57,357 nt of DNA from an uncultured Erysipelotrichaceae bacterium (GTDB lineage: Bacteria > Bacillota_I > Bacilli_A > RF39 > UBA660): assembly GCA_902773675.1 (NCBI GenBank), contig CACYFN010000008.1, forward strand, positions 1 through 57,357, read 5' to 3'. The notes beneath the pieces were generated by a model, which saw only the letters and a program-made list of their open reading frames with translations, was not told where the DNA came from and did not search any database. Positions 6,956 through 25,869 of the stretch are shown in pieces. Both the position numbers and the translations under genes were made by a program. Every line of letters starts with the position of its first letter. Position 1 is the stretch's first letter.

Positions 6956-6965
6956 TGAGGTTAAA

Positions 6966-8548: not shown

Positions 8549-8556
8549 GTGATTTT

Positions 8557-8961: not shown

Positions 8962-9293
8962 TAATACATTTAGATGAAGATATCTTTGAAGTTGTTAAAT
9001 ATGGTACAAAGACTGTGGAAGTTAGGGTAAATGATGAAAAAAGAAGAAAATTAAAAATAGGAGATAAAATTACCTTTTTAAAAAGACCTGATGATATTGA
9101 AAAAATGGATGCTATTATTGAAGATTTAGTTTATTATAAGGATTTTTTTGAGTTAGTTAAGGATTATACAATGGATGAATTATATTTAAAGGATTATTCT
9201 AAGGAAGATTTTATTAATTTACTTAAAAGATTTTATTCTGATGAAGAAGTTAGTAAATATGGTGTTGTTGCTATTAAGTTTAAAATAATATAA
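8958..9293 (+). CDS. ASCH domain protein
   Basis: F..VKYGTKTVEVRVNDEKRRKLKIGDKITF ... KYGVVAI. Confidence 0.85.
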   Translation: MIIHLDEDIFEVVKYGTKTVEVRVNDEKRRKLKIGDKITFLKRPDDIEKMDAIIEDLVYYKDFFELVKDYTMDELYLKDYSKEDFINLLKRFYSDEEVSKYGVVAIKFKII

Positions 9294-9307
9294 AAGGTAG
9301 TATTTTT

Positions 9308-9556
9308 ATGGATAATAATGATTATATTAAACGTGAGAAATTAATAATGGATATGGAATATTCCATTATTACAAATTATATAAAGTTAAGAAAAGAATCA
9401 CATATGTCACAAGAAAAATTAGCTAAGGAAACTAATGTAATTAGAACAACTATAGCTCGAATAGAAAAAAATATGAATTCACCACAACTTAAAACAATGT
9501 TAGAACTTTTAGAACCTTTAGGTTATACACTTGATATTGTACCAATAAAAAAATAA
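9308..9556 (+). CDS. XRE-family helix-turn-helix regulator
   Basis: LRKESHMSQEKLAKETNVIRTTIARIEKNMNSPQLKT. Confidence 0.85.
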   Translation: MDNNDYIKREKLIMDMEYSIITNYIKLRKESHMSQEKLAKETNVIRTTIARIEKNMNSPQLKTMLELLEPLGYTLDIVPIKK

Positions 9557-9574
9557 AAATTTATTTTAAATTAC

Positions 9575-9609
9575 TTGAGATATTGTATCACATATGATAC
9601 AATGTTTTT
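9575..9609 (+). promoter_or_regulatory. sigmaA promoter overlapped by palindromic operator
   Basis: TTGAGA(9575)-17 bp-TACAAT(9598) with extended TG; perfect inverted repeat ATTGTATCA-cata-TGATACAAT 9582-9603. Confidence 0.65.
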
Positions 9610-9621
9610 GGGTGATACAAA

Positions 9622-10059
9622 ATGATTAATAAAGTTAAAAGTGTAAAAGAAATAAGAAAATTGATTGATAAGGTTATATTACCTGGATATACTTATAAGA
9701 CAAATTTTAGTTGTGCTGAATATTTAATTGAAATTAATTTTAGATTAATAATAAAAGCTAATCTAATTAAGAAAGCTGATAAAATGATTTATGAATTTGT
9801 TTTAGATACACAATTTTTAAATGAAAATATGATTTCTTATGAAGAATTAAAAATGGTAATGGATATTATAGAAATACTTGAAGATAATAGAAATTTTACT
9901 TTGTTACGACTGAAAAAATATACTGTTTTAGAATATGAAAAAGAACAAGAAGAAAGAGAAAAAAAGAGTGAAATGATGTTAGAAGCATTGAAAAGTATGT
10001 TTATGAAAAGACTTGAAGTTAATATTAGACAAGAAGAGGAGGAAATTAATATTAAATAA
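9622..10059 (+). CDS. Hypothetical protein
   Basis: 145 aa ORF with ggtga RBS; no recognised motif. Confidence 0.6.
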   Translation: MINKVKSVKEIRKLIDKVILPGYTYKTNFSCAEYLIEINFRLIIKANLIKKADKMIYEFVLDTQFLNENMISYEELKMVMDIIEILEDNRNFTLLRLKKYTVLEYEKEQEEREKKSEMMLEALKSMFMKRLEVNIRQEEEEINIK

Positions 10060-10734
10060 TATTGAAAAATATAATGAGAATACTTTTGAAAGTATAAAAT
10101 AATTTGATGAATATGGTAATGAATTTTGGAGTGCTAGAGATTTGCAGAAAGTTTTAGAATATAAAGATTGGAGAAACTTTAAAAAAGTAATAGATAAAGC
10201 AATAGAATCTGCAAATAATAGTGTTTCAGAAAAAAAAGTTTGGGTTGTTGAAGTCAACAAGCCTATAAAAACTGGAAAAGGTAAAGAAGAATTTATTATA
10301 GATTATAAATTGTCAAGATACATATGTTATTTAATTGTACAAAATGCAGATCCAAGTAAAGAAGTTGTTGCATTAGGACAAACCTATTTTGCTGTTCAAA
10401 CTAGAAAACAAGAAATAACTTTAGAAGAATATGAATCATTATCAGATGATGATAAGAGATTGTATCAAAGAAACTTAATTAGACAAGGTAATTATACTCT
10501 TCAACATGTTGCAGCTAATGCTGGTGTTAGAAATATGGCTTAATTTCATAATGCTGGGTATAGAGATTAACGGCTGATGATATTTTTAAAAGAAAGAAAC
10601 TTCGCTATAGAGAAGATATATTAGATAATATGTGTGAGGATGAATTAGTTGCAAATTTATTTAGAATAAATCAAACAAACCAAAAACTTGAAAGAGAAAA
10701 GAGGCAATTGGATCAAAATGTAAAAGTGATTTGA
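10049..10734 (+). pseudogene. dinD: DNA-damage-inducible protein D (DinD family) pseudogene
   Basis: FESIK*FDEYGNEFWSARDLQKVLEY, YKLSRYICYLIVQNADPSKEVVALGQTYFAVQTRKQE, MA*FHNAGY, then frameshifted TADDIFKRK..YREDILDNM..ELVANLFR; stops at 10100 and 10541; ATA in place of a start after gaggagg. Confidence 0.85.
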
Positions 10735-10945
10735 AATTATATTTAAGCATTGTATCAGACTTGATATAGTGTTTTTATATGAATAAATAAAATTACGAAT
10801 AATAAATTAATAAAAAGTTTCTAATATATATTAACTTATATAAATAAGAATAATAGTTTTAAATAAATAGGAAATATAAAAAAAATATAGTATAATATAA
10901 ATGATTGATTAAATATTAAGATGAAATTTGATATGGGGTGAAATA

Positions 10946-11380
10946 ATGATAAATCGAATATTAATGGAGTTATATGATGATTATAAAAATAATAATATTG
11001 ACTCTCTTGTTGAATTTTCAAAAAAAACATTTCCATCAGATGGTACTGATAAATTATTTGTTGGATGTGTATTAATTATGTTTTCTAGGGCAAATGGTTT
11101 TAAAGCTAGATATGATTGTAATAGAGAGCAATTATTAGAAATAGTTAAATCAATAAAAGAGAAAATAGGTAATTCTAATTTATTAGCATTTTATATTAAT
11201 AGATTAAATGAAAAAAAAGGAATAAATAAGTATTTTAGGGATTTATTTGATGATGCTAATTTAGATAAATATGCTGATTTAATTATTGAATATTTGGATC
11301 AATTTAAACCAAGGTTTATTGAAGATATAAAAAGATATGAAAATAAAATAGATGATTTTATTAAAAATAATAATAATTAA
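10946..11380 (+). CDS. Hypothetical protein
   Basis: Open frame; ATG 10946 after ggggtg. Confidence 0.6.
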   Translation: MINRILMELYDDYKNNNIDSLVEFSKKTFPSDGTDKLFVGCVLIMFSRANGFKARYDCNREQLLEIVKSIKEKIGNSNLLAFYINRLNEKKGINKYFRDLFDDANLDKYADLIIEYLDQFKPRFIEDIKRYENKIDDFIKNNNN

Positions 11381-11503
11381 TATTATTTTACTGAATATTT
11401 AATTATTGATGAAATTATCTATGAATTAATAAAAAGTATTGATTAAGAATAAGGTTGTATTTTTCTTAATTATGGATAGATAGTTTATAAATGAGGCGTT
11501 AAT

Positions 11504-11983
11504 ATGGGAGTATTTATTTTTGCTTTTACTGCAACGGGAAAGACAACTGTTGCTAAAAAATATGAAAATGTTATAGATTTGGAATCGACTTATTACAAAT
11601 ATATTAATTATACTGATGATGAGAGCCTTAAAAGTACAGCGAGAAGTATAAATGAAGAATGGCCAAATAATTATTTTGAAGCATTAAAAAATGTAAAAGA
11701 TAAATATGATTATATTTTAATTGCTGATGAAATATGTAATGAATTTTTAATTAATAATAAATATGATTATTGGTATGTATATCCTAAAAGAGAATTAAAA
11801 CAAGAATATTTAGATAGGTGTAAAAAAAGAGGTAACAACGAAGAATTTATTTATTGGTATTCAAAATTATGGGATGAGTGGATAGATAAATGTGAAGAAG
11901 ATAAATGTGCATCAAAAAAAATAAAATTAAATAGTAATGAATATTTGGAAGAGAATATTTGGAAGATATACTTCCAAATTTGA
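11504..11983 (+). CDS. Small P-loop NTPase/kinase-like protein
   Basis: N-terminal AFTATGKTT Walker-A-like motif; YP..ELKQEYLDR..RGN. Confidence 0.65.
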   Translation: MGVFIFAFTATGKTTVAKKYENVIDLESTYYKYINYTDDESLKSTARSINEEWPNNYFEALKNVKDKYDYILIADEICNEFLINNKYDYWYVYPKRELKQEYLDRCKKRGNNEEFIYWYSKLWDEWIDKCEEDKCASKKIKLNSNEYLEENIWKIYFQI

Positions 11984-12128
11984 AATAAAAACTTGTGATA
12001 ATAAACGTTTAAGATTTAAAAATATAGATGCAAATCTATTGTATTAAATTATAGTTGTAGTATAAAATTTATAGAAAGGAGTTACTAATATATGTGAAAA
12101 ATCACATAATTAGATTTTTTTAGATAAT

Positions 12129-12848
12129 ATGATTAAAAATTTTAATGTTAATATTTTGGAAAAAGAGTCAAATAAATTAACTTTATCTAATTATCTAAAG
12201 TTAAAAGTTAAACAAAATATTTCTCAAGAATTACTTATAAAAATGAAAAAAAGACTTGAATTCAATTATAATCTCAATATGAAGTATTTTGATTCTTTAG
12301 ATTATAGTGAATTTGCTGAATATGTTAATAATTTTATGAAAAGAAATAAATTTGTTAGTGTAAGTGATTTAACAAAATATAAAGGTATACCAGGTATTTA
12401 TATTATGATTTTTGATGAATATAAACAGGCTTATATTGGTTTATCAGAACATGGTATTAAAGAAAGAATTCAACAACATTGGAATGAAAAAAAGGAGGCT
12501 GAAAGGCTAATTTTTGGACAAGTGTTTAATTCAATCCTTTCCGTTGATTCGTTTGGTGCTTTGGATAATACACGAATTTTTGTTAAAACTGGATGTAATC
12601 TATATAAAAATGAAGAACGTCTTGTTTATAACTTTGATAAAAGATTTCTATTGAATAGAACAGCTGGAGGTATAGGCAATATTGATACTTATACGGATGG
12701 TAAAATTTATTCACAAGTCGCTATAGTTTCAGAAATGAAGGTAAGAGATTTTACTCCTTTTATAGATGAAAAAAAATTATATGATCAGTGTAGTGAATAT
12801 GATATTATGATGTATGAAAGTATATACAAAAGAAAAGATATTGAATAA
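12129..12848 (+). CDS. GIY-YIG nuclease family protein
   Basis: PGIYIMIFDEYKQAYIGLS..IKERIQQH; later E and LLNRT.GG. Confidence 0.75.
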   Translation: MIKNFNVNILEKESNKLTLSNYLKLKVKQNISQELLIKMKKRLEFNYNLNMKYFDSLDYSEFAEYVNNFMKRNKFVSVSDLTKYKGIPGIYIMIFDEYKQAYIGLSEHGIKERIQQHWNEKKEAERLIFGQVFNSILSVDSFGALDNTRIFVKTGCNLYKNEERLVYNFDKRFLLNRTAGGIGNIDTYTDGKIYSQVAIVSEMKVRDFTPFIDEKKLYDQCSEYDIMMYESIYKRKDIE

Positions 12849-13110
12849 TATAATGGAGTCAATTATGGATATTAAAAATGAAGTATTAATATATGAATAT
12901 AAAGATGGATTAACTGGAGTTGATTTTAAATTTATAGATGAAGATGTTTGGTTAATTCAAAATCAATTAGCTAATATATATAAGATAACACAAGAAAATA
13001 TTTCAATGCATATATCAAATATTTATAAAGATAATGAATTACCAAGTTCAACTAATAAGAAAATCTTATTAGTTTAAAAAGAAGATAATCGAGATGTTAA
13101 AAAAATATAT
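12814..13110 (+). pseudogene. RhuM-family N-terminal fragment
   Basis: EDVWLIQNQLANIY..TQENISMHISNIYKDNEL..STNKKILLV*KEDNRDVK parallels ENIWLTQK...STIRKFRIVQKEGNREV of the intact copy at 14015; nonsense codon and truncation. Confidence 0.8.
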
Positions 13111-13152
13111 AATTAAAATGAATGATATTAATATAAATTGTGAGGTGAAAAT

Positions 13153-13788
13153 ATGGATTCAATAGAATATTGGGATAAAGTTGCTAAAGAAAAAACTTTT
13201 ACTACACCATTTCAATTGGAACTTTTTAAAGAATATGTAGGTAAAGATAAAAAAGTAGTAGATATTGGTTGTGGTTATGGAAGAATATTAAAGGAGTTAT
13301 TTGATAATGGGTATACTAATTTATTAGGAATTGATTTTTCTAATGAGATGATAAAACTTGCTAAAGAAAAATATTCATACATAAATTTTAAAGTTGCTAA
13401 TGGAAAAAATTTAGAATTTGAGAATAATAGTATAGATTCTATTATATTGTTTGCAGTACTTACTACTATATATGATAGTAAAAGTCAACAAGATTTGATT
13501 AAAGAAGTATATAGAGTGCTTAAAAAAGATGGTATTTTATATGTAAATGATTTTTTATTGAATGATAGTGATTTATATTTGAAACGATATAATAAATATA
13601 AAAATATATATCATGAATATGGTGTTTTTGAATCTAGTGATGGAGGAGTTTTTAAACATCATAGTGAAGAATATTTTAATGAATTATTAAGTGATTTTAA
13701 GTGTGAGAAAGAAAAAGTTTTAAAATTTAAGACTATTAATGGACATACTTCAAATGGAGTTTATTATTTAGGTAGAAAAAGAGGTTAA
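13153..13788 (+). CDS. Class I SAM-dependent methyltransferase
   Basis: VVDIGCGYGR motif I, GIDFSNEMI, EVYRVLKKDG. Confidence 0.9.
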   Translation: MDSIEYWDKVAKEKTFTTPFQLELFKEYVGKDKKVVDIGCGYGRILKELFDNGYTNLLGIDFSNEMIKLAKEKYSYINFKVANGKNLEFENNSIDSIILFAVLTTIYDSKSQQDLIKEVYRVLKKDGILYVNDFLLNDSDLYLKRYNKYKNIYHEYGVFESSDGGVFKHHSEEYFNELLSDFKCEKEKVLKFKTINGHTSNGVYYLGRKRG

Positions 13789-13793
13789 ATTTT

Positions 13794-14014
13794 AAAATAA
13801 AACTAATATAAATTGGTTAATAACAATTTAGTTAAGAACATTCTTAAAGTATTATAAAATAAAGAAAAAGTAAAAAATACATCTTTCATATTTTTTATAT
13901 AATTAGCAAAAAAATGATATAATTTATCAAAAATAGCTAAATATTTGTGATTTTTTGTTAGGGAGTTGGAAAGTGATTACAAAAGTTAAGAACATATAAA
14001 AAGAGGTGAATATA
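13794..14014 (+). repeat. Cassette junction 1 (rbgA 5' copy lacking start codon + leader)
   Basis: aaaataaaactaatataaattggttaataacaatttagttaagaaca ... tgattacaaaagttaagaacatataaaaagaggtg. Confidence 0.85.
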
Positions 14015-15073
14015 ATGAAAAAAAATGAAGTGACAATTAGATCTAGTGCAGCCGAATATTTAATTTTTATTGCTGCAACAGGTGATGATAAAGAATCAAT
14101 TGAAGTAAGATATGAAGATGAGAATATATGGTTAACACAAAAAATGCTTTCAACTTTATATAAAGTTGAAATAAACACAATTAATTATCATATTAAAAAA
14201 ATCTATAGTGATAATGAATTAAGTGAAGATTCAACTATTCGAAAATTTCGAATAGTTCAAAAAGAGGGTAATCGTGAAGTATCTAGAGATGTAGTTCATT
14301 ATAATCTTCAAATGATAATAGCTTTAGGTTTTAAGGTTGATAATGATAGAGCTGTTCAATTTAGAAAATGGGTTAATGAAATAGTTAAAGAATATACTAT
14401 TAAAGGTTTTGCTATGGATGACGATAGGCTTAAAAATGGTGGTTCTATATTAACTGAAAAATATTTTGATGAATTACTAGAAAGAATTAGAGAAATAAGG
14501 TTGTCAGAAAGAAGATTTTATCAAAAAGTAACAGATATATATGCTACAAGTATAGATTATGATAAGGATTCTAAAACAACTCTTGAGTTTTTTAAAACGG
14601 TTCAAAATAAAATGCATTATGCTGTTTCTGGAAATACTGCAGCTGAAATAATATATAATAGAGCTGATGCAAGTAAAGAACATATGGGATTAACTAATTG
14701 GATTGATGCTCCAGATGGTAAGATTATGAAAAGTGATGTTGTAATTGCTAAAAACTATCTTAGTGAAGAGGAACTGTATTCATTAAGAAGAATTGTTTCG
14801 GCATATTTAGATTTAGCAGAATCAAGAGCAGAAAGACACATACCGATGACTATGGAAGATTGGTCTAATAGACTAGATGAGTTTTTAAAATTAACTGATA
14901 GAGAAATATTAGAAGATGCTGGAAAAATTTCGCATAGAATTGCATGTGATAAAGCTGAATCTGAATTTGAAAAATATAGAATAGTACAAGATCAACTATA
15001 TATTAGTGATTTTGATAAATATATAAGTGAACTTGAAAATTTAGAAGAAAAATCTGATGAAAGTTTTAATTAA
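14015..15073 (+). CDS. rhuM: RhuM-family (virulence RhuM) DNA-binding protein
   Basis: IRSSAAEYL.F, ENIWLTQK, YNLQMIIALGFKV, QFRKW, KGFAMDDDRLK, YFDELLERIREIRLSERRFYQKVTDIYA. Confidence 0.9.
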   Translation: MKKNEVTIRSSAAEYLIFIAATGDDKESIEVRYEDENIWLTQKMLSTLYKVEINTINYHIKKIYSDNELSEDSTIRKFRIVQKEGNREVSRDVVHYNLQMIIALGFKVDNDRAVQFRKWVNEIVKEYTIKGFAMDDDRLKNGGSILTEKYFDELLERIREIRLSERRFYQKVTDIYATSIDYDKDSKTTLEFFKTVQNKMHYAVSGNTAAEIIYNRADASKEHMGLTNWIDAPDGKIMKSDVVIAKNYLSEEELYSLRRIVSAYLDLAESRAERHIPMTMEDWSNRLDEFLKLTDREILEDAGKISHRIACDKAESEFEKYRIVQDQLYISDFDKYISELENLEEKSDESFN

Positions 15074-15076
15074 ATA

Positions 15077-15198
15077 AACTATTTCAAATTTTAAAATAGT
15101 TGAACTTATAAGAAATGCTTATAATTTGAATAATATTATTTGATATCCGTCGAATTCGACGGAATATGAATTTAAAGTGTTCAAATTTGAACACTTTA
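15077..15198. repeat. Array of back-to-back palindromes
   Basis: aactatttcaaa-t-tttaaaatagtt; aacttataag-aaatg-cttataattt; aataatattatt; tccgtcgaattcgacgga; taaagtgttcaaatttgaacacttta. Confidence 0.85.
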
Positions 15199-15219
15199 TA
15201 AAAAGAGGGTGAGAAAAAT

Positions 15220-16338
15220 ATGAATAAAAATGAAAATACAAATAATCAAAAATATACAATAATATCATTTGTAGCTGTAAGCAATGAAAATGTAAATAAA
15301 TTTGTAGAAGAAGATAACAATAATAATATATTTATTAATGCATTTGATGATATATACTATTTAGTATTAGCGAATAAATCAAATTTAGACGAAAGATTAT
15401 TAGTAAATGACAATTATAGATATTTAAAGAACAGTTCAGAGATTGAAAATTTAAATAATACAATAAAAATTGATGATTTGCTAAAAAAGTATGTAGAAGA
15501 AAATGATAGATTTATTATTATACATAGTTATGCAAATGAATATGAAGAGTCATTGGCAATGAAATTATTTAAAAATATCATTAATAGTAATAAGGAATGT
15601 GTGAATGTATTTTTAATTCCGCCTACATTTACAGGTAAGGTTGATTTATTTCTAAAATTTAAGTATGAACTATTAAACTCATCAGCAAAAAATTATTATT
15701 TTGCTTGTGATGATATACTACCAAAACTTCCTTCAGATTTATCATTAGGACAGTTAAATGCATTTTTTTACAAATGTTTGTTTGAAATTGCATATAGTGT
15801 TGGAACAAATTTTAATGTAAGTGATATTTTAGATAAAATAATATCTAATGTTAAAACAAATATGAAAACTAATATATTTGAGTATGAAGATGAAGAATTT
15901 GGTAAAATAAAATTTGAATTGCTTGAGGATAGAGCGATAATTTTAGAACCTATAGTAATATTTGACAATAAAAATATCTATCCGGAAATATCATTTGATT
16001 ATAAAGGATGTGGACAAACATTAAGTGAATTTAAAAAAAATATTTCATCATATGTTAACGTTTTAAAAAATATAATAAGTAAAAAAGATGATATATTAAA
16101 TAGTTTATATGATAAAGCTTTAGAATTATATATTAATTGGGAAGAAGTAACTGAATCAAATATTGATTATGTAAAAGAGCATACTTCAATAAGTTTTATT
16201 GATATATATGATGGACAAGCAAATATTAAAGCAGCTGGATATGATAAAGATAAATTACTTTTAGGAGGTCATTTTATTGAGGCTATTATTGATAGTAATG
16301 AAATAGATTCTAAAAATATAGAATGGAATATATTTTAA
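15220..16338 (+). CDS. Hypothetical protein (cassette cargo)
   Basis: 372 aa ORF with gagggtga RBS; no confident family. Confidence 0.7.
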   Translation: MNKNENTNNQKYTIISFVAVSNENVNKFVEEDNNNNIFINAFDDIYYLVLANKSNLDERLLVNDNYRYLKNSSEIENLNNTIKIDDLLKKYVEENDRFIIIHSYANEYEESLAMKLFKNIINSNKECVNVFLIPPTFTGKVDLFLKFKYELLNSSAKNYYFACDDILPKLPSDLSLGQLNAFFYKCLFEIAYSVGTNFNVSDILDKIISNVKTNMKTNIFEYEDEEFGKIKFELLEDRAIILEPIVIFDNKNIYPEISFDYKGCGQTLSEFKKNISSYVNVLKNIISKKDDILNSLYDKALELYINWEEVTESNIDYVKEHTSISFIDIYDGQANIKAAGYDKDKLLLGGHFIEAIIDSNEIDSKNIEWNIF

Positions 16339-16355
16339 TGGATTAATAAAGTCTA

Positions 16356-16572
16356 TTGAATGAAAATAAAACTAATATAAACTGGTTGATTTCAATTTAG
16401 TTAAGAATATACGAAAGCCCCTATAAACAAAGGTGTTTCTCAAAATACATCTTGCCTGTTTTTAAGAAAAATGGCTAAAAATTGCAAAAAAATGCAAAAA
16501 ATAGGTATTTTTTTATTAAGAAGTTGCAAGTTGATTACAGAAGTTAAGAACATATAAAAAAGAGGTGAAATA
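16356..16572 (+). repeat. Cassette junction 2
   Basis: ttgaatgaaaataaaactaatataaactggttgatttcaatttagttaagaa ... ttgattacagaagttaagaacatataaaaaagaggtg. Confidence 0.9.
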
Positions 16573-17433
16573 ATGGAATTTAATTTTTTAGAGGAACAAG
16601 AAAAAATAATGTTAGCAAATGAACACATTAATGGGATAATAACTAAATATAATGAAATATTAATGAATTTAAGCGATAAAGAAAAAAATGTAATGCAACT
16701 TTATTACTATTTTAAAAAATTAGATACTTTTAAGTCGATGACACCAAAAGGTAATTATTGGGACGACAAAAGAGAAAAGTATATAAATAAAGGATTAGAA
16801 ATAATTAAAAATCTTGGAACAAAAACTTTTTCAAATATACATAGTTTAGATGAAATAAGAAAAAATGTTGATAGTTATATGAGTAATAGTGATTTATTAA
16901 ATATTATTACTAGTTTTTCTTTAGAAATAAAATCAGCATATAAAAAATATTGTGACTATGTTTATACTGTTTTACCTATATCGGGTATAAAAGAACTTGA
17001 AGAAAGCAGACATAGAGAAAATCAATATTTAAATAGTATTAATAATGGTGTATTTGCTACTGCAACAATGGAAAGTATTGAAAAATACATTGCTAGAGCT
17101 AATGTTGGTGGTATGATAGTTCATGGCAATGAAATTGAATATCCATCTAATCCATTTTTAAATATTAGTGAAGAAGGATTAACATTAATAAAACCTGTTT
17201 CAATATATTTAAGTAATGTTGATTTATTTGAACCACAATTTGATTATGAAATAGATTCTAATGGTATTCCACATTTTGTTTATGGAGGAGAATGGATTGC
17301 TCCACATGAAAAAGTTCCATGTATAGAAAAACAAACAACATATTTACCAACCTCATTCCTAGAAAATAATATAGTGTATTATCAAGAAAATGGTGAAATG
17401 ATTCAAATTAATAAAGAAATTAAAAAATTATAA
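16573..17433 (+). CDS. Hypothetical protein (cassette cargo)
   Basis: 286 aa ORF right after the leader RBS. Confidence 0.7.
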   Translation: MEFNFLEEQEKIMLANEHINGIITKYNEILMNLSDKEKNVMQLYYYFKKLDTFKSMTPKGNYWDDKREKYINKGLEIIKNLGTKTFSNIHSLDEIRKNVDSYMSNSDLLNIITSFSLEIKSAYKKYCDYVYTVLPISGIKELEESRHRENQYLNSINNGVFATATMESIEKYIARANVGGMIVHGNEIEYPSNPFLNISEEGLTLIKPVSIYLSNVDLFEPQFDYEIDSNGIPHFVYGGEWIAPHEKVPCIEKQTTYLPTSFLENNIVYYQENGEMIQINKEIKKL

Positions 17434-17450
17434 CAAAGGAGGTAATACTT

Positions 17451-17660
17451 ATGAATGAAAATAAAACTAATATAAACTGGTTGATATTGATTTAGTCTAA
17501 CTATTTTTGGACATCCCATAAAATAAGGAAAACTAATATTTTGTAATTACATTTTTTTTATGAATAATTACTAAAAAGTATTAAATAATTGTAAAAAATA
17601 GCCAAAAATAACATAGTATTTTTTACTTGGTATTGACGGTTAAACTTTTATAAAAATGAG
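17451..17660 (+). repeat. Cassette junction 3
   Basis: aaggaggt RBS, ATG AAT GAA AAT AAA ACT AAT ATA AAC TGG ttgatattgatttagtctaact ... tacttggtattgacggttaaact. Confidence 0.9.
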
Positions 17661-18599
17661 GTGATTATTTTGAATTTAATAGATACATTAAATACAAGTT
17701 ATGAATATGTTTGTGATAACTCCAGAAATGTAAAAATAAATTATGATAAAATTGATGATTTAATTGATCAGATTAATAACTCAAAAGTTGATTATTGGTT
17801 AGATCCAAATCCATATGGTTTAATGGATATGGATGTAAAAGAAATAATTAATTTCTTATTCATATATCATGCAATAGGAGATTATTGCTTTTGGGGAGAT
17901 CCTAAATGGGAAGTAAAAACAGATCTAGGTGTTATGGATGGGTCTTATGCAATAATGTACTTAATACTAAATAGATTTAAATCAAATAATAATTTTGAAA
18001 TTAGTTTTGATGAATTTAAAGAATTATTAAAAGGAAATGTAACAATTCCATTGTTAGAAGATAGATATCAAAATTTAGTAGAAATGAATAGATTTCTTAA
18101 ATCTAAAAATAAGTCATTCTATGAATTAATTAAAGAATTAAACATTGATAGTGAATTATTTGAATTTATAGTTAATAATTTAGATTATTTTAAAGATATA
18201 TCTAATTATGGAGGAAAAGAAATACTATTTTATAAAAGAGCTCAATTATTAACTTCTGATATTCTACATGTTAAAGAGAAGAAAGAAAATATTGAAGTAG
18301 ATTATTCTCATTTAATTGGTTGTGCTGATTATAAAATACCTCAAGTTATGAGATGCTATGGTATGTTAGAATTCAGTGATAGTTTAGGAGATAAAGTTGA
18401 TTCTAAAATAGAATTAAAAGAAGGTTCTGAAGAAGAAATAGAAATAAGAGCAAATACTTTAAAAGTAATAAACTATATATATGAAAGATTAGATAAAAAA
18501 TATTCTCGCATGGATATAAATGATTTTATATGGCTACTAGGTCAAAATAAATCTCAAATGACTAAACCATATCATAGAACATTAACAAAACATTATTAA
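17661..18599 (+). CDS. Queuosine salvage family protein (DUF2419/Qng1-like queuosine nucleotide N-glycosylase)
   Basis: YCFW, FYKRAQL, ADYKIPQV, EEEIEIRA, INDFIWL, PYHRTLTKHY motifs; start GTG 17661 or TTG 17670. Confidence 0.85.
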   Translation: MIILNLIDTLNTSYEYVCDNSRNVKINYDKIDDLIDQINNSKVDYWLDPNPYGLMDMDVKEIINFLFIYHAIGDYCFWGDPKWEVKTDLGVMDGSYAIMYLILNRFKSNNNFEISFDEFKELLKGNVTIPLLEDRYQNLVEMNRFLKSKNKSFYELIKELNIDSELFEFIVNNLDYFKDISNYGGKEILFYKRAQLLTSDILHVKEKKENIEVDYSHLIGCADYKIPQVMRCYGMLEFSDSLGDKVDSKIELKEGSEEEIEIRANTLKVINYIYERLDKKYSRMDINDFIWLLGQNKSQMTKPYHRTLTKHY

Positions 18600-18666
18600 G
18601 CCATATGCCCGGGCAACTATCTTGGTTAACTTGGTATTGGATTAGTCTAATTACGATAAATGACTT

Positions 18667-18703
18667 AAAAAAGGACGAAATAGTACTAAATTTCGCCTTT
18701 TTT
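18667..18703 (+). terminator. Rho-independent terminator (A-tract/T-tract, possibly bidirectional)
   Basis: aaaaaagg(a)cgaaat-agtactaa-atttcgcctttttt. Confidence 0.7.
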
Positions 18704-18704
18704 A

Positions 18705-18713
18705 TGCTATAAT
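18705..18713 (+). promoter_or_regulatory. Extended -10 promoter ahead of rbgA-copy ATG 18737
   Basis: TGcTATAAT, then ggagtga RBS and ATG. Confidence 0.6.
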
Positions 18714-18736
18714 TGAATAGAAATGGAGTGATTCCT

Positions 18737-18994
18737 ATGGATAATAGAACTAATATAAATTGGTTGATTACGATTTATAGTAACTTTTGGAGAAACTCTT
18801 TATTTATAAGGTTTTGCGAAGAATAACATCTTGCATGTTTAATATATAATATTATGAATTTTAATAAAAAATAGTCAAAAAAATATTATGAATTTTAATA
18901 AAAAATAGTTAAAAACGGCTAAAACAAGATAAAAATAACATAGGAATTATAGTGTTGATTACGACACAGTAACTCATGTAAAAGAGGTATGTTT
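18737..18994 (+). repeat. Cassette junction 4 (MDNRTNINW variant; contains 34-bp tandem duplication)
   Basis: atggataatagaactaatataaattggttgattacgatttatagtaact ... gttgattacgacacagtaact ... aaaagaggt. Confidence 0.9.
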
Positions 18995-19426
18995 ATGAAT
19001 TATAAATTGATAAAATCATCAAGTAAAGATATAGAAAAATTAATTGAATACAAAAAAAGAACAATCTTTGAATATGCTAAAGATTTACCTGATGATGAAA
19101 TTAATAAAATAAATAATTATGTAAAAAATAATGTTTTAAAATTACTTAATGATTATTCTAATATAATTGTAGATAATAAAGTAATAGGTTGTTTACTATT
19201 AACAAATAAAGACGATAACATATTGTTAGATGAAATATATATTGAACAAGAATATAGAAATAAAGGTATTGGAACAGATATAATAAAAAATGTAATAAAT
19301 GAAAATGATATAATATATTTATGGGTATATAAAGAAAACGTAAAAGCAATCTCATTGTATAAAAAACTAGGATTTAACGTGATAGATGAAACTGATTCTA
19401 GATATTATATGAAGTATAGCACGTAA
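18995..19426 (+). CDS. GNAT-family N-acetyltransferase
   Basis: EIYIEQEYRNKGIGT, LWVYKENVKAISLYKKLGF. Confidence 0.9.
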   Translation: MNYKLIKSSSKDIEKLIEYKKRTIFEYAKDLPDDEINKINNYVKNNVLKLLNDYSNIIVDNKVIGCLLLTNKDDNILLDEIYIEQEYRNKGIGTDIIKNVINENDIIYLWVYKENVKAISLYKKLGFNVIDETDSRYYMKYST

Positions 19427-19440
19427 AGGAGTTGATGTTG

Positions 19441-19670
19441 ATGAATGAAAATAAAACTAATATAAACTGGTTGAGAACAATTTAGTCAAGACCACGCCTA
19501 AATCTTTATAATATAAGGAAAAATCCCAAAATAGATCTTACATGTTTTATATAAAAATATGTTGAAATAAGTAAAAAATAGTTAAAATTGAGTATTTTTA
19601 AGTAAAAATTGCTTTGGAATTGATATGGTGAGAACGGCTAGTTAAGACCAGTAAAAAATGAGGTGAAATA
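19441..19670 (+). repeat. Cassette junction 5
   Basis: aaggag RBS, atgaatgaaaataaaactaatataaactggttgagaacaatttagtcaagacca ... tgagaacggctagttaagacca ... tgaggtg. Confidence 0.9.
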
Positions 19671-20509
19671 ATGGTAGTAAATGAAATTACAGTAAATGAT
19701 TATTTAACTAAATCAAATTTACCAGATAGTGACTACGTAATTAATCCATATGTTGGTTGTACACATGGTTGTAAGTATTGTTATGCATCTTTTATGAAAA
19801 GATTTACTGGTCATAAAGAAAACTGGGGAGAAACTGGGGAGATTTTATTGATATTAAAAGATGTAATAAACCGATCGATTTAAGAAAAATTTCAGGTAAA
19901 AATATATTTTTATCTTCAGTTACTGATTGTTATAATCAATATGAAAAAGATTTTTGTATTACAAAAAATATATTAGAACAGTTAATCGATTCAGATTGTA
20001 ATTTATCTATTTCTACAAAGTCAAAATTAATTTTAAGAGATATTGATTTATTAAAACAAATGAAAAATTTGATAGTTTGTATATCTATAAATACATTGAA
20101 TGAAAAGTTTAGAAGTGATATGGATAATGCAAGTACTATAAAAGAAAGAATGGATACATTAAAAGAATTGCACAATAATGGAATTTATACTGTATTATTT
20201 ATGTCGCCAGTCTTTCCTTATATAACTGAATGGAAAGAAATAATAGATCAGACAAAAGATTATGTTGATGAATATTGGTTTGAAAATTTAAATTTAAGGG
20301 GCAATTATAAAAAAGAAATCTTAGACTATATTAGAACTAATTATTCAGATTTATACTCAGATTATATTGATATATATTTAAAGAAAAATAATAAATATTG
20401 GAAAGATTTAGCTGAAGAAATAAATAATTATTGTAATCTAAATAACATTAATTATACAAATTATTTCTATCATAAAGAATTAGTTGAGAAGAAGAAAGAA
20501 GGTAATTAA
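19671..20509 (+). pseudogene. Radical SAM protein (spore photoproduct lyase-like family), frameshifted
   Basis: INPYVGCTHGCKYCYA (CxxxCxxC); 11-bp duplication aactggggaga at 19821-19842; removing one copy gives NWGDFIDIK..IFLSSVTDCY..ISTKSKLILRDIDLL continuous with ORF 20060-20509. Confidence 0.85.
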
Positions 20510-20981
20510 ATGATTGAAAATTTTTTAATAGAAGCAAAAAAGCAAACATACGCTAATGAAAATGCTCCAAAAATTGATAGTTCAAGATTGAATTCTAAAG
20601 ATTACGAATATAAAAAAGGTAATATGATTTATCATGATACCTATTTTGGTGGTACGAACTTTATTGGAGACGAACTTTATTGGAGAAGAAGTTGTTTATA
20701 TAGATAATCAAACATATTGGGCTATGAATTATTATGGAACAACTTTAGATGAAACACTAGGCGAAGAAGCTATGGATAAAGCTTTAAGACCAGCTCTTAT
20801 GAAAGTGGGAGAAGATGTTAACGTAATTCCTGTAAGAGGACCAAAGGAATTTATTAATGGTGAATATAAGTACACTTTTGAAATAAGAGGAGACATAAAC
20901 TGTTTTAATGGTATAGAGAGTGTATATAAAAATGATGTTAAGATATATGAATTAAGATGTACAGGTGGTTTAATTAAATAA
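20510..20981 (+). pseudogene. DUF5680-like protein, frameshifted
   Basis: FLIEAKKQTYA, YHDTYFGG, GEEVV, WAMNYYG, PVRGP, GG.IK; 16-bp duplication acgaactttattggag at 20654-20685 splits the frame. Confidence 0.8.
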
Positions 20982-21001
20982 AATTGAAGGAGTTGATCCA
21001 A

Positions 21002-21203
21002 ATGAATGAAAATAAAACTAATATAAACTGGTTGTAATTATTTGCAAAACTCCTATAAAATAAGGAAAAAACAAGTATATGCTTGTTACATAATTTAATA
21101 AAAATATAAAAATAATAATAAAAACAATTAAAAAAGTATCAAAAATGGCATAGTATTTGATACTTGGTATTGACGGTTAAAGTTTTAGTAAAGAGGTGGA
21201 AGT
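21002..21203 (+). repeat. Cassette junction 6 (left box apparently deleted)
   Basis: aaggagttgatccaa atgaatgaaaataaaactaatataaactggttg ... tacttggtattgacggttaaa ... gaggtg. Confidence 0.9.
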
Positions 21204-21689
21204 ATGCTTGATTTATCTAATATATATAAAATAACAAAACAAATAGATGAGCAATTTGCATTATATTATGGTAATGAAGAAGAAATAGTGCGAAAAAATA
21301 GATTAGAATTATTAGTTGAACTTGGTGAATTAGCTAACGAAACTAGATGTTTTAAGTATTGGTCTATAAAGCAAACAGGAGAAAAAGAAAAAGTATTGGA
21401 AGAATATATAGATTGTTTATTTATGACTTTATATTTTTCTAATATTACTGGCATATCATTAGATGAAGAATTTCCATCTTCATTAAATGGTGATATAATT
21501 GATACGTTTTTAAGTTTAAATAAATTCGCAAGTAGTATAAGTGTTGTACCTAAAAAAGAAGAAGTTAAAAAAATATTGGTAGAATTAGATCATCTTGCTA
21601 AACTACTTAATTTTACAATAGAAGATTTAGAAAGAGTTACAAAAATTAAAACTAAAATTATTGAAAGCAGATTCAATAGTGAGTATTAA
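21204..21689 (+). CDS. Dimeric (all-alpha) dUTPase
   Basis: LLVELGELANETRCFKYWS, VLEEYIDCLF. Confidence 0.85.
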   Translation: MLDLSNIYKITKQIDEQFALYYGNEEEIVRKNRLELLVELGELANETRCFKYWSIKQTGEKEKVLEEYIDCLFMTLYFSNITGISLDEEFPSSLNGDIIDTFLSLNKFASSISVVPKKEEVKKILVELDHLAKLLNFTIEDLERVTKIKTKIIESRFNSEY

Positions 21690-21705
21690 AAAGGAGTTGA
21701 TCCAA

Positions 21706-21936
21706 ATGAATGAAAATAAAACTAATATAAATTGGTTGATTACGATTTATTTAACCTCTTTAAGGAATCCTTTGTTTGTAAGGCTTTGCGGAATTTAACA
21801 TCTTGCATGTTTTATGTAATAATATGTTAAAATAGACAAAAATTAGTAAAAAATGACTATTTTTATTGAAAAATAATGGAGGAATTAGTAAGGTGATTAC
21901 ACCTTTTAACCCCCCCAGAGAAAATGAGGTGAAATA
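21706..21936 (+). repeat. Cassette junction 7
   Basis: aaggagttgatccaa atgaatgaaaataaaactaatataaattggttgattacgatttatttaacc ... tgattacaccttttaacc ... tgaggtg. Confidence 0.9.
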
Positions 21937-22521
21937 ATGAAAGATTATATATTTATAATAGGACCTAGTGGAGTTGGTAAAACAACATTTGCTAAAGGTT
22001 TATTTGAACATTATAAAGGTGTTTACTTTGAACAAAATATGATTCCTGAATTTGGTATACCTGATAATGTAGATGAAGGCAAATATGAAGAAGAAATATT
22101 GTGGGAAAGCTCTATTGAATTATTAAAATATTTCCATAATAAAGGAATTAAAAATATTATTGCTTTGGATTTTAATGATTTAAGAACTAGAGAAATACCA
22201 ACAACCTTTAAAGGTACTAATTTTATTACTCTTAAATTAATTTCATCTATTTATGAACAAAATAAGAATCAAATGTTAGAACGTGGTGAAAAAGGATTAG
22301 TTGATTTAGAGCTACTTGAAGTATCAACTAAAAAGATAATGAATAGAGAATTACTTCCTAATGAAGTATTATTAGATGTTGCTAATAAATCAAAAGAAGA
22401 AGTATTAAAAGAGGCAATTAATATTATAGATAATTATGATTGTAAATTAGATTATGAATATACAGAACCATCAAAAGAATCATTTTATTCTTGGGTTCAA
22501 AGTGATGGATTAAGGAAGTGA
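21937..22521 (+). CDS. P-loop kinase/AAA-family protein
   Basis: IIGPSGVGKTT Walker A. Confidence 0.75.
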   Translation: MKDYIFIIGPSGVGKTTFAKGLFEHYKGVYFEQNMIPEFGIPDNVDEGKYEEEILWESSIELLKYFHNKGIKNIIALDFNDLRTREIPTTFKGTNFITLKLISSIYEQNKNQMLERGEKGLVDLELLEVSTKKIMNRELLPNEVLLDVANKSKEEVLKEAINIIDNYDCKLDYEYTEPSKESFYSWVQSDGLRK

Positions 22522-22527
22522 TTTTTA

Positions 22528-23403
22528 ATGAATAATGAAGAAAAAAACTTACAAAAAACGAACATTAACTGGTATCCAGGTCATATGGCTAAAACCAAAA
22601 GATTAATAATTGAAAATATAAATTTAATAGATGTTGTATATGAGGTAATAGATGCTAGAATGCCTTATTCATCTAAGATAAAGGATATTGATAATTTTAT
22701 TAAGGATAAAAAGAGAATATTAATTATGACTAAAATTGATTTATGTGATATGGATGAAACTAATAAATGGATTAAATATTATCAAGGATTAGGTTATAAA
22801 GTAATATGTTTAAATTTAGAGGGTAATACTAATTTAGATAATTTAATTAAAATGACTACTGATATTATGAAGGAAGAGAATGAAAAAAGATTAAGTAAAG
22901 GTATGAAAGTTAGAAAGACTAGAGTACTTGTTGTTGGAATTCCAAATGTTGGTAAAAGTACTTTAATTAATAGATTAGTTGGTAAAAAGGTAGCTAATGT
23001 TGGTAATATGCCTGGTGTTACTAAAAATTTAAATTGGATAAGAATTAATGATAATATAGAACTACTTGATTCTCCTGGTATTTTATGGCCTAAATTAGAT
23101 GAAGAGAATGTTGCTTTTAATTTAGCTAGTCTGACTTCTATTAAGGAAGAAATATTACCTATTGATGAAGTTGTTATTTATATATTAAATACATTAAATA
23201 AATATTATTCTAATATATTAAAAGAAAGATATGGTATTGATTATATTAGTGATGATATAGAAGAAACTTTAGAAAGTATTGGTAGAATGAGAGGTTGTCT
23301 TGTACGTGGTGGGGTAGTTGATTATGATAAAGTTTATAGTGTTGTTATGAATGATATAAAAAGTGGATTAGTGAAAGGAATTACGTTTGATAGATATGAA
23401 TAA
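22528..23403 (+). CDS. rbgA: Ribosome biogenesis GTPase RbgA/YlqF
   Basis: INWYPGHMAK, DARMP.SS, TKID, GIPNVGKSTLIN, PGVTK, LLDSPGILWP. Confidence 0.97.
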   Translation: MNNEEKNLQKTNINWYPGHMAKTKRLIIENINLIDVVYEVIDARMPYSSKIKDIDNFIKDKKRILIMTKIDLCDMDETNKWIKYYQGLGYKVICLNLEGNTNLDNLIKMTTDIMKEENEKRLSKGMKVRKTRVLVVGIPNVGKSTLINRLVGKKVANVGNMPGVTKNLNWIRINDNIELLDSPGILWPKLDEENVAFNLASLTSIKEEILPIDEVVIYILNTLNKYYSNILKERYGIDYISDDIEETLESIGRMRGCLVRGGVVDYDKVYSVVMNDIKSGLVKGITFDRYE

Positions 23404-23761
23404 TTTAAATGCATTAGTACTTGCTTATTTAGGTGATAGTATTTATGAAATAATTGTTAGAAAACATTTAATAAATATGGGTATTGCGAAAGTAAAGGAA
23501 TTACAGAAGGAAAGTATTAAATATGTAAGCGCAAGTAGTCAAGCTAAATTTTTAAAAGAGATGATGGATAATAATATTTTTAGTGATGAAGAATTAAAAA
23601 TAATTATGAATGCTCGTAATCATAAAAACAATCATAAGCCTAGAAATTGTGATATAATTACTTATAAGTATGCAACGGGATTAGAGGCTTTAATAGGATA
23701 TTTATATTTAAATGATAATAAAGATAGAATTAATGAAATTATGAATTACATTTTAAAGTAG
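23396..23761 (+). CDS. mrnC: Mini-ribonuclease III
   Basis: LAYLGDSIYE, YVSASSQA, ARN, YKYATGLEALIGYLYL. Confidence 0.92.
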   Translation: MNNLNALVLAYLGDSIYEIIVRKHLINMGIAKVKELQKESIKYVSASSQAKFLKEMMDNNIFSDEELKIIMNARNHKNNHKPRNCDIITYKYATGLEALIGYLYLNDNKDRINEIMNYILK

Positions 23762-23770
23762 GGTGATATA

Positions 23771-24550
23771 ATGCTTAAAGATAATGGCTTTAAACTTGGT
23801 GTTTATGATTATTTTTGTAAGAGTGTTAATGATAGTAGAAAAGGTGTTTTCTTAATTACTGATAAACAGAGTGTTTTTTATTCACAAGTAGAAGGTGACT
23901 ATTATACACATGATGAAATTCGAATTGAAATTGAAAAACTTATTTATCCTAATAAAAATATTAATGGATTTGATGAGATAGATCATAATAATATATTTAT
24001 TGCTTCTTTAGGACATGAATTACTTGTAGAGATACCTGATGGTAGATTAAGTTATTCAAAATTTTTACTATTTTTAAATGTATTAAGAGAAATGGATAGG
24101 TTTAATAGTAAAAAATTGAATATTAAAAAAGTAGAGTTATTAATATTAAAACGTGGTGGAACTATTTATAAGAGTGAAAAGCCTAATATGGATGATGTTA
24201 TATTTGAATTAAAAAAGTTGATAGTACACGATACTAATTTAGAAGATGAGAAAATAATTGGAAATACATTAGATAAAGATACTATTATTAATTGTATAAA
24301 GTATCAAATTGATTTGGAAAGCTGTGAGTGTTTAAGTGATTTAGATGTATCTTTAAAAAGATGTGAAAAATATAATAATGATAATTATTATTATCCATAT
24401 TTTAAAGAGATTTTTAGTGATTATGAGAGTACTAAAAGGATATTTGATGAATTAGAAAATAAATATGATGAAGATACACCTATAACAAATATTACATATG
24501 ATAATATTTTGGATAAATTAAATAGTTTTAGTAGTGTTAAAATACATTAA
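23771..24550 (+). CDS. Hypothetical protein
   Basis: 259 aa ORF with gggtga RBS between mrnC and rlmB. Confidence 0.65.
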   Translation: MLKDNGFKLGVYDYFCKSVNDSRKGVFLITDKQSVFYSQVEGDYYTHDEIRIEIEKLIYPNKNINGFDEIDHNNIFIASLGHELLVEIPDGRLSYSKFLLFLNVLREMDRFNSKKLNIKKVELLILKRGGTIYKSEKPNMDDVIFELKKLIVHDTNLEDEKIIGNTLDKDTIINCIKYQIDLESCECLSDLDVSLKRCEKYNNDNYYYPYFKEIFSDYESTKRIFDELENKYDEDTPITNITYDNILDKLNSFSSVKIH

Positions 24551-24562
24551 AGGGAGATAAAT

Positions 24563-25258
24563 ATGTTAGTATATGGTAAGAATGTTTGTTTAGAATATTT
24601 AGAAAGTAATAAAAAAATTAATAAAATATTTTTAAGTGATAAATTTAATGATAATGAAATAAAAGATTTAATCAATAGAAGACATATAAATGTTAAACAT
24701 GTTAGTAAAAATGATATGGATAGAAAATGTAGTGGTCTTCATCAAGGAATTATTATGGAAGTTGAAGATTATGAATATGCTAGTATTGATTGTATTTTAA
24801 ATAAAGATAATGCTTTAGTAGTTATATTAGATCATATTGAAGATCCTCATAATTTTGGAGCTATTATTAGAACATGTGAAGCTGCTGGAGTAGATGCGAT
24901 AATTATACCAAATGATAGAAGTGTATGCGTAAATGCTACTGTAATTAAGACTAGTGTTGGTACTACGGAGAAGGTAAATATAATAAAAGTTACTAATTTA
25001 GTTAATACAATTAATGAACTTAAAAAAAATGGTTACTGGATATTTGGTACTGATATGGATGGGGAAGATTATACTAAATTAGATTATAAAGGTAAAACTT
25101 GTATTATATGTGGCAATGAAGGTAAAGGAATGAGTCCTATAATTACTAAAAATTGTGATTTTATTGCTAGTATACCTATGAATGGAAGTGTTAATAGTTT
25201 AAATGCTTCTGTTGCTACAGGAATTATTTTATTTGAAGCAGTTAATAAAAGGAGATAG
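24563..25258 (+). CDS. rlmB: 23S rRNA (Gm2251) 2'-O-methyltransferase, TrmH/SpoU family
   Basis: HQGI, LDHIEDPHNFGAIIRT, GNEGKG, IPMNGSVNSLNASVA. Confidence 0.92.
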   Translation: MLVYGKNVCLEYLESNKKINKIFLSDKFNDNEIKDLINRRHINVKHVSKNDMDRKCSGLHQGIIMEVEDYEYASIDCILNKDNALVVILDHIEDPHNFGAIIRTCEAAGVDAIIIPNDRSVCVNATVIKTSVGTTEKVNIIKVTNLVNTINELKKNGYWIFGTDMDGEDYTKLDYKGKTCIICGNEGKGMSPIITKNCDFIASIPMNGSVNSLNASVATGIILFEAVNKRR

Positions 25259-25260
25259 TT

Positions 25261-25869
25261 ATGGATTATTCTAATTATAATGATTATGAATTACTAGATT
25301 TTATTTATGAAGGAAATGAAGAAGCTAATAATATTATTTTAGAAAAATATGATCCTTTGATAGGCTCGATAGCTAATAAAATGCTTAAATATTGTCATAA
25401 TAATGGTCTTGATTATAATGATTTACGTCAGGAAGGTTATATTGGGCTTAATTATGCAATTATCCATTTTAGGGAAGAAAAAAATGTTGTTTTTTATACA
25501 TATGTTAAAAAGTGTATTGAAAGAAAAATTATAAGTACTATTATTGGTTCTACAAGATTAAAACATAAAGCATTAAATGATTCTTTTTCTTTTGATACAG
25601 ATGATAAGATTTTAGATAGATGGTTTAAATCAGAAAGTAGTAATCCTTCAAAAATAGTTGAAAATGCTGAACTTGCGGAAGAAATAATTAAAAAGGTTAG
25701 GAAAAAATTAACTAGTATGGAAGAACAAGTTTTTGAATTAATGCTTAGTGATTTTAATTATAAGGAGATTGCTGATATATTGGATAAGGATTCTAAGGCT
25801 ATTGATAATGCTATTCAAAGGATTAGAGTTAAAGTTAAAGATGTAATGAATGATTGTATAAATAGATAA
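25261..25869 (+). CDS. sigH: Sigma-70 family factor, SigH-like
   Basis: DLRQEGYIGL..AI..F, RLKHKALN, YKEIA..L....KAIDNAIQRIRVK; lies after rlmB as in Bacilli. Confidence 0.8.
   Translation: MDYSNYNDYELLDFIYEGNEEANNIILEKYDPLIGSIANKMLKYCHNNGLDYNDLRQEGYIGLNYAIIHFREEKNVVFYTYVKKCIERKIISTIIGSTRLKHKALNDSFSFDTDDKILDRWFKSESSNPSKIVENAELAEEIIKKVRKKLTSMEEQVFELMLSDFNYKEIADILDKDSKAIDNAIQRIRVKVKDVMNDCINR

Follow-up and report, generated by a model that had tools for sequence, protein, structure and literature searches.

The segment at positions 18599–18650 of the window, the 57,357-nucleotide stretch of DNA analysed here, forms the upstream end of a mobile module of about 165 nt, the rbgA leader (18600–18763). 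Cassettes stack in the first codons of rbgA, and in a minority of them this module makes up the 3′ end. At its head, the right half of the rbgA attachment site is copied in inverted orientation (the inverted word), and a cassette-boundary box follows at a short distance. The finding is real and recurrent and concerns the head of a portable leader module; the role of the inverted word is putative. On sequence comparison, we tentatively read the word as an inverted docking half-site for the recombinase of the array, possibly now a fossil, and we give this reading a probability of about 0.4. The coordinates of the features are collected in Table 1.

Table 1. Features of the rbgA cassette array and of the rbgA leader module, in positions of the window
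Feature	Position	Strand	Remark
Cassette 3, left boundary box	17481–17501	+	directly after a decoy rbgA start ending in TGG (17478–17480)
Cassette 3, right box of the conserved 5′ module	17627–17645	+	immediately before the cargo ribosome-binding site
Cassette 3 cargo, Q_salvage (queuosine-salvage) protein	17661–18599	+	PF10343, E = 5.9e-38; stop codon 18597–18599
Inverted copy of the rbgA attachment site, right half	18600–18617	-	antisense of G, a Leu codon and the Pro-Gly-His-Met-Ala codons
Spacer, 17 nt	18614–18630	+	length kept (16–17 nt); first 7 letters conserved, inner 10 variable
Cassette-boundary box, recombination core	18631–18650	+	breakpoints between related copies at either side or within
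Bidirectional intrinsic terminator	18667–18703	.	A-run, hairpin 18674–18697, T-run
Extended -10 promoter, TG-n-TATAAT	18698–18713	+	fused to the terminator T-run; consensus match only
Ribosome-binding site and decoy rbgA start	18726–18763	+	ATG at 18737 to TGG at 18761–18763; joint to the next cassette
Four later cassettes: GNAT; radical SAM and DUF5680; dUTPase_2; P-loop kinase-like	18764–22572	+	separate the module from rbgA
rbgA gene	22528–23403	+	from the Pfam-scanned ORF set
Resident rbgA Pro-Gly-His-Met-Ala codons	22576–22590	+	sense partner of the inverted copy

Organization of the rbgA cassette array

The window is contig C8 of a draft genome of 1.46 Mb (1,459,803 bases) with 24.8% GC. 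Seven joints are found upstream of rbgA at 13805–21737, each with a decoy rbgA start ending in ...N-I-N-W. Repeated copies of the 5′ end of the gene serve as boundaries of the array units, with the frame restored, and the same organization is seen in relatives. Each joint is followed by a box of ~21 nt, a conserved promoter-like module of ~150 nt, a second box, a ribosome-binding site and one or two cargo genes. The second box of each cassette repeats the first one in a cassette-specific manner. Across the array, the cargo comprises RhuM, Q_salvage, GNAT, radical SAM, DUF5680, dUTPase_2 and a P-loop protein. Homologues of Q_salvage, the cargo of cassette 3, are present in 41 of 300 other genomes of the family. 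Read from its letters, the rbgA attachment site is itself a pseudo-palindrome around TGG-TAT.

Several other features of the array were recorded. When the box after the joint was compared with the one ~150 nt downstream in each cassette (13816–21914), the common, cassette-specific letters formed direct, not inverted, repeats, as in the pair at 18764–18784 and 18955–18973. In most cassettes, the second box opens a mini-ORF of 5–14 codons with its own Shine-Dalgarno-like word. The mini-ORFs at 13964–13999, 16531–16566, 17627–17653 and 21894–21938 stop at or just before the cargo ribosome-binding site, and such mini-ORFs might encode leader peptides or couple translation. Short tandem duplications split two cargo genes. 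That of the radical SAM gene is 11 nt long (19812–19833) and is absent from the contigs of three other samples; that of the DUF5680 gene is 16 nt long (about 20655–20686), in a region where the contigs of two or three samples have gaps of 16 or 28 nt. At the leftmost joint (13786–13818), directly 3′ of the stop of a methyltransferase gene, the decoy arm carries neither start codon nor ribosome-binding site. The dUTPase_2 cassette (21031–21060) has lost its first box, so that the joint is followed by unrelated letters, and has kept the remainder of its 5′ module. Upstream of the array, the block at 9300–13150 contains small genes (HTH_3, Bro-N, a weak GIY-YIG match and unknowns) without decoy joints. 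This block may be an older or different island.

Integrase-less elements (CIMEs) accrete in tandem, head to tail, at ICE attachment sites, and the rbgA cassettes likewise stack head to tail. The target itself is known from conjugative elements of the Tn5253 type, which insert in the 5′ end of rbgA, where a duplication of the gene start restores the coding sequence (according to the available part of PMC8571831). The cassettes share with these elements the target gene, the region of insertion and the duplicated gene start. They differ from them in that the units are single-gene cassettes of 0.7–2.5 kb with their own promoter module and boundary boxes, and in their inverted target-arm copy, of which the available part of PMC8571831 makes no mention. 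A literature search of the main texts turned up neither cassette arrays nor inverted copies of the target at rbgA.

The inverted word, its box and the leader

According to the original prediction, the letters at 18599–18613 are the reverse complement of CCC GGG CAT ATG GCT, the codons for Pro-Gly-His-Met-Ala, and depart from the resident rbgA gene at wobble positions only. Both statements are correct: the letters stand at these coordinates, and the differences from the resident codons are confined to two third-codon positions. The core of the inverted copy is the 14-mer 18600–18613. On both strands of the whole genome, the degenerate word for these codons, CCNGGNCAYATGGC, occurs twice, once in rbgA and once, in antisense, at 18600–18613. 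Two matches with at most three mismatches were observed in the window, as compared to 0.05 expected from window shuffles. Among 401 genomes of the family, 296 contain the word, whereas a reversed control word gave two matches in total. Because the genome holds only two occurrences, the shuffles predict 0.05 and the control word is rare, a chance match was ruled out as the origin of the inverted word.

The inverted copy is longer than first reported. It includes three to four more letters, namely an antisense Leu/Phe/Tyr codon, corresponding to the residue that follows Trp in RbgA, and the last G of the Trp codon. The antisense Leu/Phe/Tyr codon is found in 18 of 20 copies of the module, representing seven of nine spacer families, and the complement of the last G of Trp follows in most of the 20. 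At the outer end, several copies continue into the Ala wobble base and a Lys codon. Extension at both ends therefore indicates that the inverted copy spans the right attachment-site arm, beginning at the crossover and running outward.

Two coding or promoter functions of the word were considered and rejected. A small ORF formed by the word was discarded, the reading frames being closed or out of phase. A sigma-70 promoter was also discarded, as the hexamer spacing is 14 and a promoter scan performed no better on the sequence than on shuffles.

The box proposed at 18631–18650, 17 nt beyond the inverted word and followed by a terminator, is real. It belongs to the same family as the left box of cassette 3 (17481–17501), with which it shares 17 of 20 letters by hand count, and its first nine letters are common to the right box (17627–17645). 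The earlier description of this box as a hybrid of the two boxes of junction 3 is thus adequate for the letters; it does not hold for the origin. Indeed, the same box, with its spacer and leader, occurs in genome G388, where the boxes of the adjacent cassette differ, and this contradicts derivation from the boxes of junction 3 itself. Near-identical boxes are also present in G308 and G236. It was confirmed that the target arm carries foreign wobble bases and that its distance to the cassette-boundary box, with which it is physically linked, is fixed.

All copies of the module share the same order: the cargo stop, the inverted word, a spacer of 16–17 nt, a box beginning with TTGRT, about 10 nt, the terminator, the TG-n-TATAAT word, a ribosome-binding site, the decoy start and the joint. 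The spacer is 17 nt long, or 16 nt in four of the 20 copies when the box is read from TTGAT, and its start is common to most spacer families. By hand count, about half of the 17 spacer positions fit a remnant of the left attachment-site arm in either orientation, sense or antisense, the antisense reading requiring one missing codon and TGG read as TAG. The extended -10 word also precedes rbgA in G016, G388, G378, G047 and others, and the stretch from the terminator onward is the working rbgA leader and start in G016 and G388.

In most copies the module adjoins rbgA, and the inverted word then faces the real codons 162–187 bp away. In the window, the four later cassettes have split the two apart. 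The word-to-codon distances cluster at about 167 and about 178 bp, that is 11 bp or one helical turn apart, in 12 leaders adjoining rbgA behind which stand only two independent leader families. These two distance classes hint at helical phasing.

Comparison of related copies places the crossover cores of the array in its 21-nt boxes. In an ‘empty’ unit of G388 (L050, ~883–1100), an ordinary decoy joint leads directly into a 21-nt box and leader, both of which recur in G156, there preceded by the inverted word and 17 nt. Loci L060 and L064 are identical over 105 nt, through the word, the spacer and eight letters of the box, and diverge inside the box. Finally, G106 and G378 on the one hand, and the window and G308 on the other, have word, spacer and box in common and carry leaders of two different types. 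These three sets of comparisons show the box to be the recombination core, and it travels with both the word and the leader.

Recurrence in relatives and decay of the inverted word

A search of other arrays for an antisense word beside a box recovered the same pairing many times. Overall, 20 distinct copies of the module were tabulated from related uncultured rumen and gut Bacilli. The inverted word is therefore not a private scar of cassette 3 and belongs to a conserved module that recurs in relatives. Exact inverted copies lie in rbgA arrays of six of the 401 family genomes (G000 included), at seven sites, five of which adjoin rbgA or lie near it on the same contig. All 13 of the 401 genomes with at least two copies of the word were inspected; of the other second copies, four fall within unrelated genes and three are duplicates of the rbgA start, direct or at a contig end. 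The antisense copy stands 167–179 bp upstream of the real codons in G388, G378, G047 and G307. In G388, the stretch is about 92% identical (hand count) to positions 18600–18763 of the window, and the CCCGGG wobble bases, the spacer and the box are part of this match.

Two wider scans were performed. With one genome per species, six of nine matches were relevant and came from uncultured Bacilli, Erysipelotrichaceae and Mollicutes of goat, reindeer and other sources. In metagenomes, two of 13 matches were relevant. The irrelevant matches (3/9 and 11/13) lie in GC-rich contigs of 43–59% GC, where the word plus CAACTAT reads A-I-C-P-G-N-Y, most of them within genes and in frame as N-A-I-C-P-G-N-Y. 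We take these genes to be of the short-chain dehydrogenase family. A fragment of such a gene was rejected as a source of the inverted word: most array copies have TGA or TGG at the Cys codon and continue as antisense rbgA instead.

The element is infrequent at rbgA. Of 60 rbgA loci drawn in the order of the list, the 48 with 250 nt or more of upstream sequence served as an unselected set, and one of these upstream regions (G393) contains the word, with one mismatch. This result argues against the word being the native leader of all rbgA genes. Searching with the leader only, the word was found with one to three mismatches in 11 of 20 fetched places, 10 of them at 94–99 nt before the promoter. 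Within the window, it is present in one of the seven junction units, that of cassette 3. The possibility that it is a conserved tail of the Q_salvage cargo was also discarded, as none of 29 fetched Q_salvage homologous loci has an inverted-word 3′ tail.

Two observations were made on neighbouring material. The closest Q_salvage homologues, with 81–83% identity (L012–L014, from G275, G058 and G042), stand among other repeated non-coding modules with GC-rich hairpins and repeated ‘tagata’-type words, which may belong to another cassette system. At G364:C8 (L043, reverse strand, 2814 and 3786), the rbgA start is present twice in direct orientation, at a distance of 972 nt, and the two copies share about 40 nt past the Pro-Gly-His-Met-Ala codons; one cassette therefore carried a longer piece of rbgA.

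It had been envisaged that the wobble bases of the word might track the rbgA allele of the host. They do not. In all six word/resident pairs compared, the word differs from the resident allele, and it does so at wobble positions only. Pairing with the local rbgA is therefore not maintained. Copies found without selecting for the word carry one to three changes, mostly GC-to-AT, at non-wobble positions. These changes indicate that the inverted word decays in place and that present-day selection is weak at best. In these unselected copies, a rough hand count per position gave about 0.19 at non-wobble positions, about 0.4 at wobble positions and about 0.5 in the inner spacer. The word retains at least 11 of its 14 letters in 20/20 copies, the conservation of the 12 exact ones partly reflecting how copies were found; the inner spacer and the flanks are unalignable between families. 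In G016, part of the spacer and of the box has also been lost. We read the pattern of the word as constraint during a mobile phase and relaxation after fixation.

The same pattern might have arisen with no function at all. One old aberrant event would have left an att-sized inverted copy beside a box, and this copy would have been inherited with the leader ever since. Possible events include an insertion in inverted orientation and template switching at the pseudo-palindrome of the attachment site. In this form, the scar of an inverted recombination suggested earlier is a live rival. A neutral fossil would account for the mostly GC-to-AT decay of the unselected copies and for the loss in G016, as well as for an element that is rare (1/48 unselected loci) and dispensable for later insertions; the spacer start common to most families fits a single origin. 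It accounts less well for a word kept at 11 or more of 14 letters in every copy while the inner spacer and flanks diverged beyond recognition, for a spacing to the box held at 16–17 nt, and for changes that cluster at wobble positions and at the variable Leu/Phe/Tyr codon, unlike neutral decay. We regard this explanation, and the kind of originating event that goes with it, as possible although rather doubtful.

Candidate roles of the inverted word

The reading that we prefer is that of a docking half-site. A recombinase using rbgA as a hotspot would have to read the right arm at those bases which the protein motif keeps constant, and the inverted copy would present the same bases in mirror orientation. 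It would thereby provide a second docking half-site, at the right end of the cassette. A left half-site in the form of a mirrored right arm is plausible, given the pseudo-palindromic build of the attachment site around TGG-TAT. Docking would serve the mobile stage of the cassette, for instance in looping or synapsing the leader or in aiding excision of the cassette together with its leader. Once the cassette is fixed, the inverted copy would be free to decay, and at no stage would docking need a match to the wobble bases of the host. In favor of the docking half-site we count the recurrence with a fixed anatomy, the constant distance between word and box, the way in which changes fall selectively, and the two distance classes. 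On the other side, no recombinase is tied to the array, the element decays, and the half-site lies 18–31 nt from the edge of the box. The element is also dispensable: in the window, in L060 and in G055, new cassettes were inserted behind it without having one of their own, showing that it is not needed for insertion.

Large serine integrases target a pseudo-palindrome of ~35–40 bp, in which one subunit would bind a mirrored half-site. The rbgA target resembles their attB sites in being a pseudo-palindrome inside a conserved gene. It departs from their att sites by the distance of 18–31 nt between the inverted half-site and the box edge and by having no integrase tied to the array. To our knowledge, a half-site at such a distance fits no known att-site geometry of a serine or tyrosine integrase. 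A Pfam scan of 28 ORFs at 6389–25869 found no recombinase, no Phage_integrase domain and no IntI-type integrase. The genome encodes three large serine recombinases, all on other contigs, which have no rbgA-like site; a link with the array was rejected on this basis. The tyrosine recombinase genes of the genome are on other contigs as well. The window and the arrays of G388 and G378 encode no IS110-type recombinase and no adjacent invertase gene. The single IS110 gene of the genome is found on contig C47, in an ordinary element with its own non-coding end, so that a link of the array to this element was also set aside.

These searches bear on the bridge-like element put forward by the original prediction, that is a short RNA in which the word, as complement of the target, and the box, as copy of the donor, would guide an RNA-guided recombinase. 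The segment does bring target-complementary and donor-identical stretches together within ~50 nt ending in a hairpin, much as such stretches are adjacent in the non-coding end of IS110 elements encoding a bridge RNA, and the boxes are cassette-specific with a constant word. Features of bridge RNAs are however lacking. An Rfam search gave 0 matches, which set aside a known RNA family; the terminator is the only structure common to the folds of the 20 copies, none of which shows a two-loop fold; and the word does not covary with the resident allele. No IS110-type recombinase is encoded near any examined array, the sole IS110 gene being on another contig, and a segment of this kind is missing from most cassettes. 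In the available part of PMC11208160, the guides of the IS110 bridge RNA are short and split, arranged around a core dinucleotide in two internal loops, whereas the word is one block of 14–18 nt. We therefore consider an RNA guide of this type very improbable.

An RNA function of another kind would be that of an antisense seed. The 3′ tail of the cargo transcript would pair with codons 16–21 of the rbgA messenger of any host and thereby tune RbgA. The position of the word, between the cargo stop and a strong terminator in all copies, suits such a role. Moreover, the word covers exactly those rbgA bases that are invariant across hosts, so that it would work in any of them, and the rbgA promoter downstream of it would yield two separate RNA molecules. 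The fixed distance of 16–17 nt to a DNA recombination core would however be left unexplained, and in one subfamily a terminator-like hairpin precedes the word. No conserved RNA fold was detected beyond the terminator, and Rfam gave no match. In addition, the target is about 45 nt inside the coding region, and pairing at such a position rarely blocks initiation. Antisense control of rbgA is thus unlikely in our opinion.

An inversion site had also been proposed. The word and the real codons would act as inverted repeats between which the leader flips, switching rbgA off and on. In the 12 measured copies beside rbgA, inverted repeats of 14–18 bp indeed bracket a promoter-bearing segment of 162–187 bp. 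The flipped state would however leave the essential rbgA gene without a start and with an in-frame stop codon, and no invertase gene is adjacent. Assembled contigs from two other samples are collinear with the window across cargo, word and box and display the forward state only at the leader. Among the 15 joints listed, of 113, none changes strand. Many alignment ‘skips’ in the sample contigs were traced to cross-alignments between related leaders of other organisms. No inversion was observed in these contigs, and a switch of this type is hardly credible.

The docking half-site may finally be extended to a bolder proposal, in which the whole leader, between the inverted and the direct copies of the half-site, would be a working recombination substrate of a new kind. 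This substrate would be either an attC-like folded strand, handled by a non-integron recombinase in Bacilli, or a protein-looped site with docking points one or more whole helical turns apart. We hold this to be improbable at present. In the part of the integron literature available to us, attC sites resemble the rbgA element in standing directly after the cargo gene, in stacked promoter-proximal cassettes, and in having imperfect inverted repeats at the ends of a variable stretch of 60–180 nt with the crossover beside the right repeat. When single strands were folded with DNA parameters, 10 of the 12 leaders beside rbgA had 10–14 expected arm-to-arm pairs; the fragment ends were chosen by hand, so that these folds speak for feasibility only. 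By analogy, an attC-like single-strand substrate is conceivable. According to the same partial sources, every integron cassette ends in an imperfect palindrome and the crossover lies at the outer edge of the repeat; here the element occurs in a minority of cassettes, the crossover is at the inner edge, and the right repeat is inside an essential host gene, the pair being lost upon a new insertion. Neither an IntI-type integrase nor an attI site is present here.

Even if it is only a fossil, the inverted element would be a useful marker of the history of the arrays. It points to the bases that the recombinase probably reads: those of the Pro-Gly-His-Met-Ala codons outside the wobble positions, which a non-coding stretch preserves in mirror image. 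The inverted word thus offers a concrete probe for the enzyme, through binding assays or co-occurrence analysis. The data also define a portable unit, made of box, terminator, promoter, ribosome-binding site and decoy start, that shields expression of the essential rbgA gene from the cassettes. Overall, these arrays have the appearance of an integron-like system by which uncultured Bacilli of gut and rumen capture genes at the start of rbgA. If the leader were a recombination substrate of the new kind considered above, rbgA arrays would represent a second integron-like system of gene capture, evolved independently and equipped with an attC analogue of its own.
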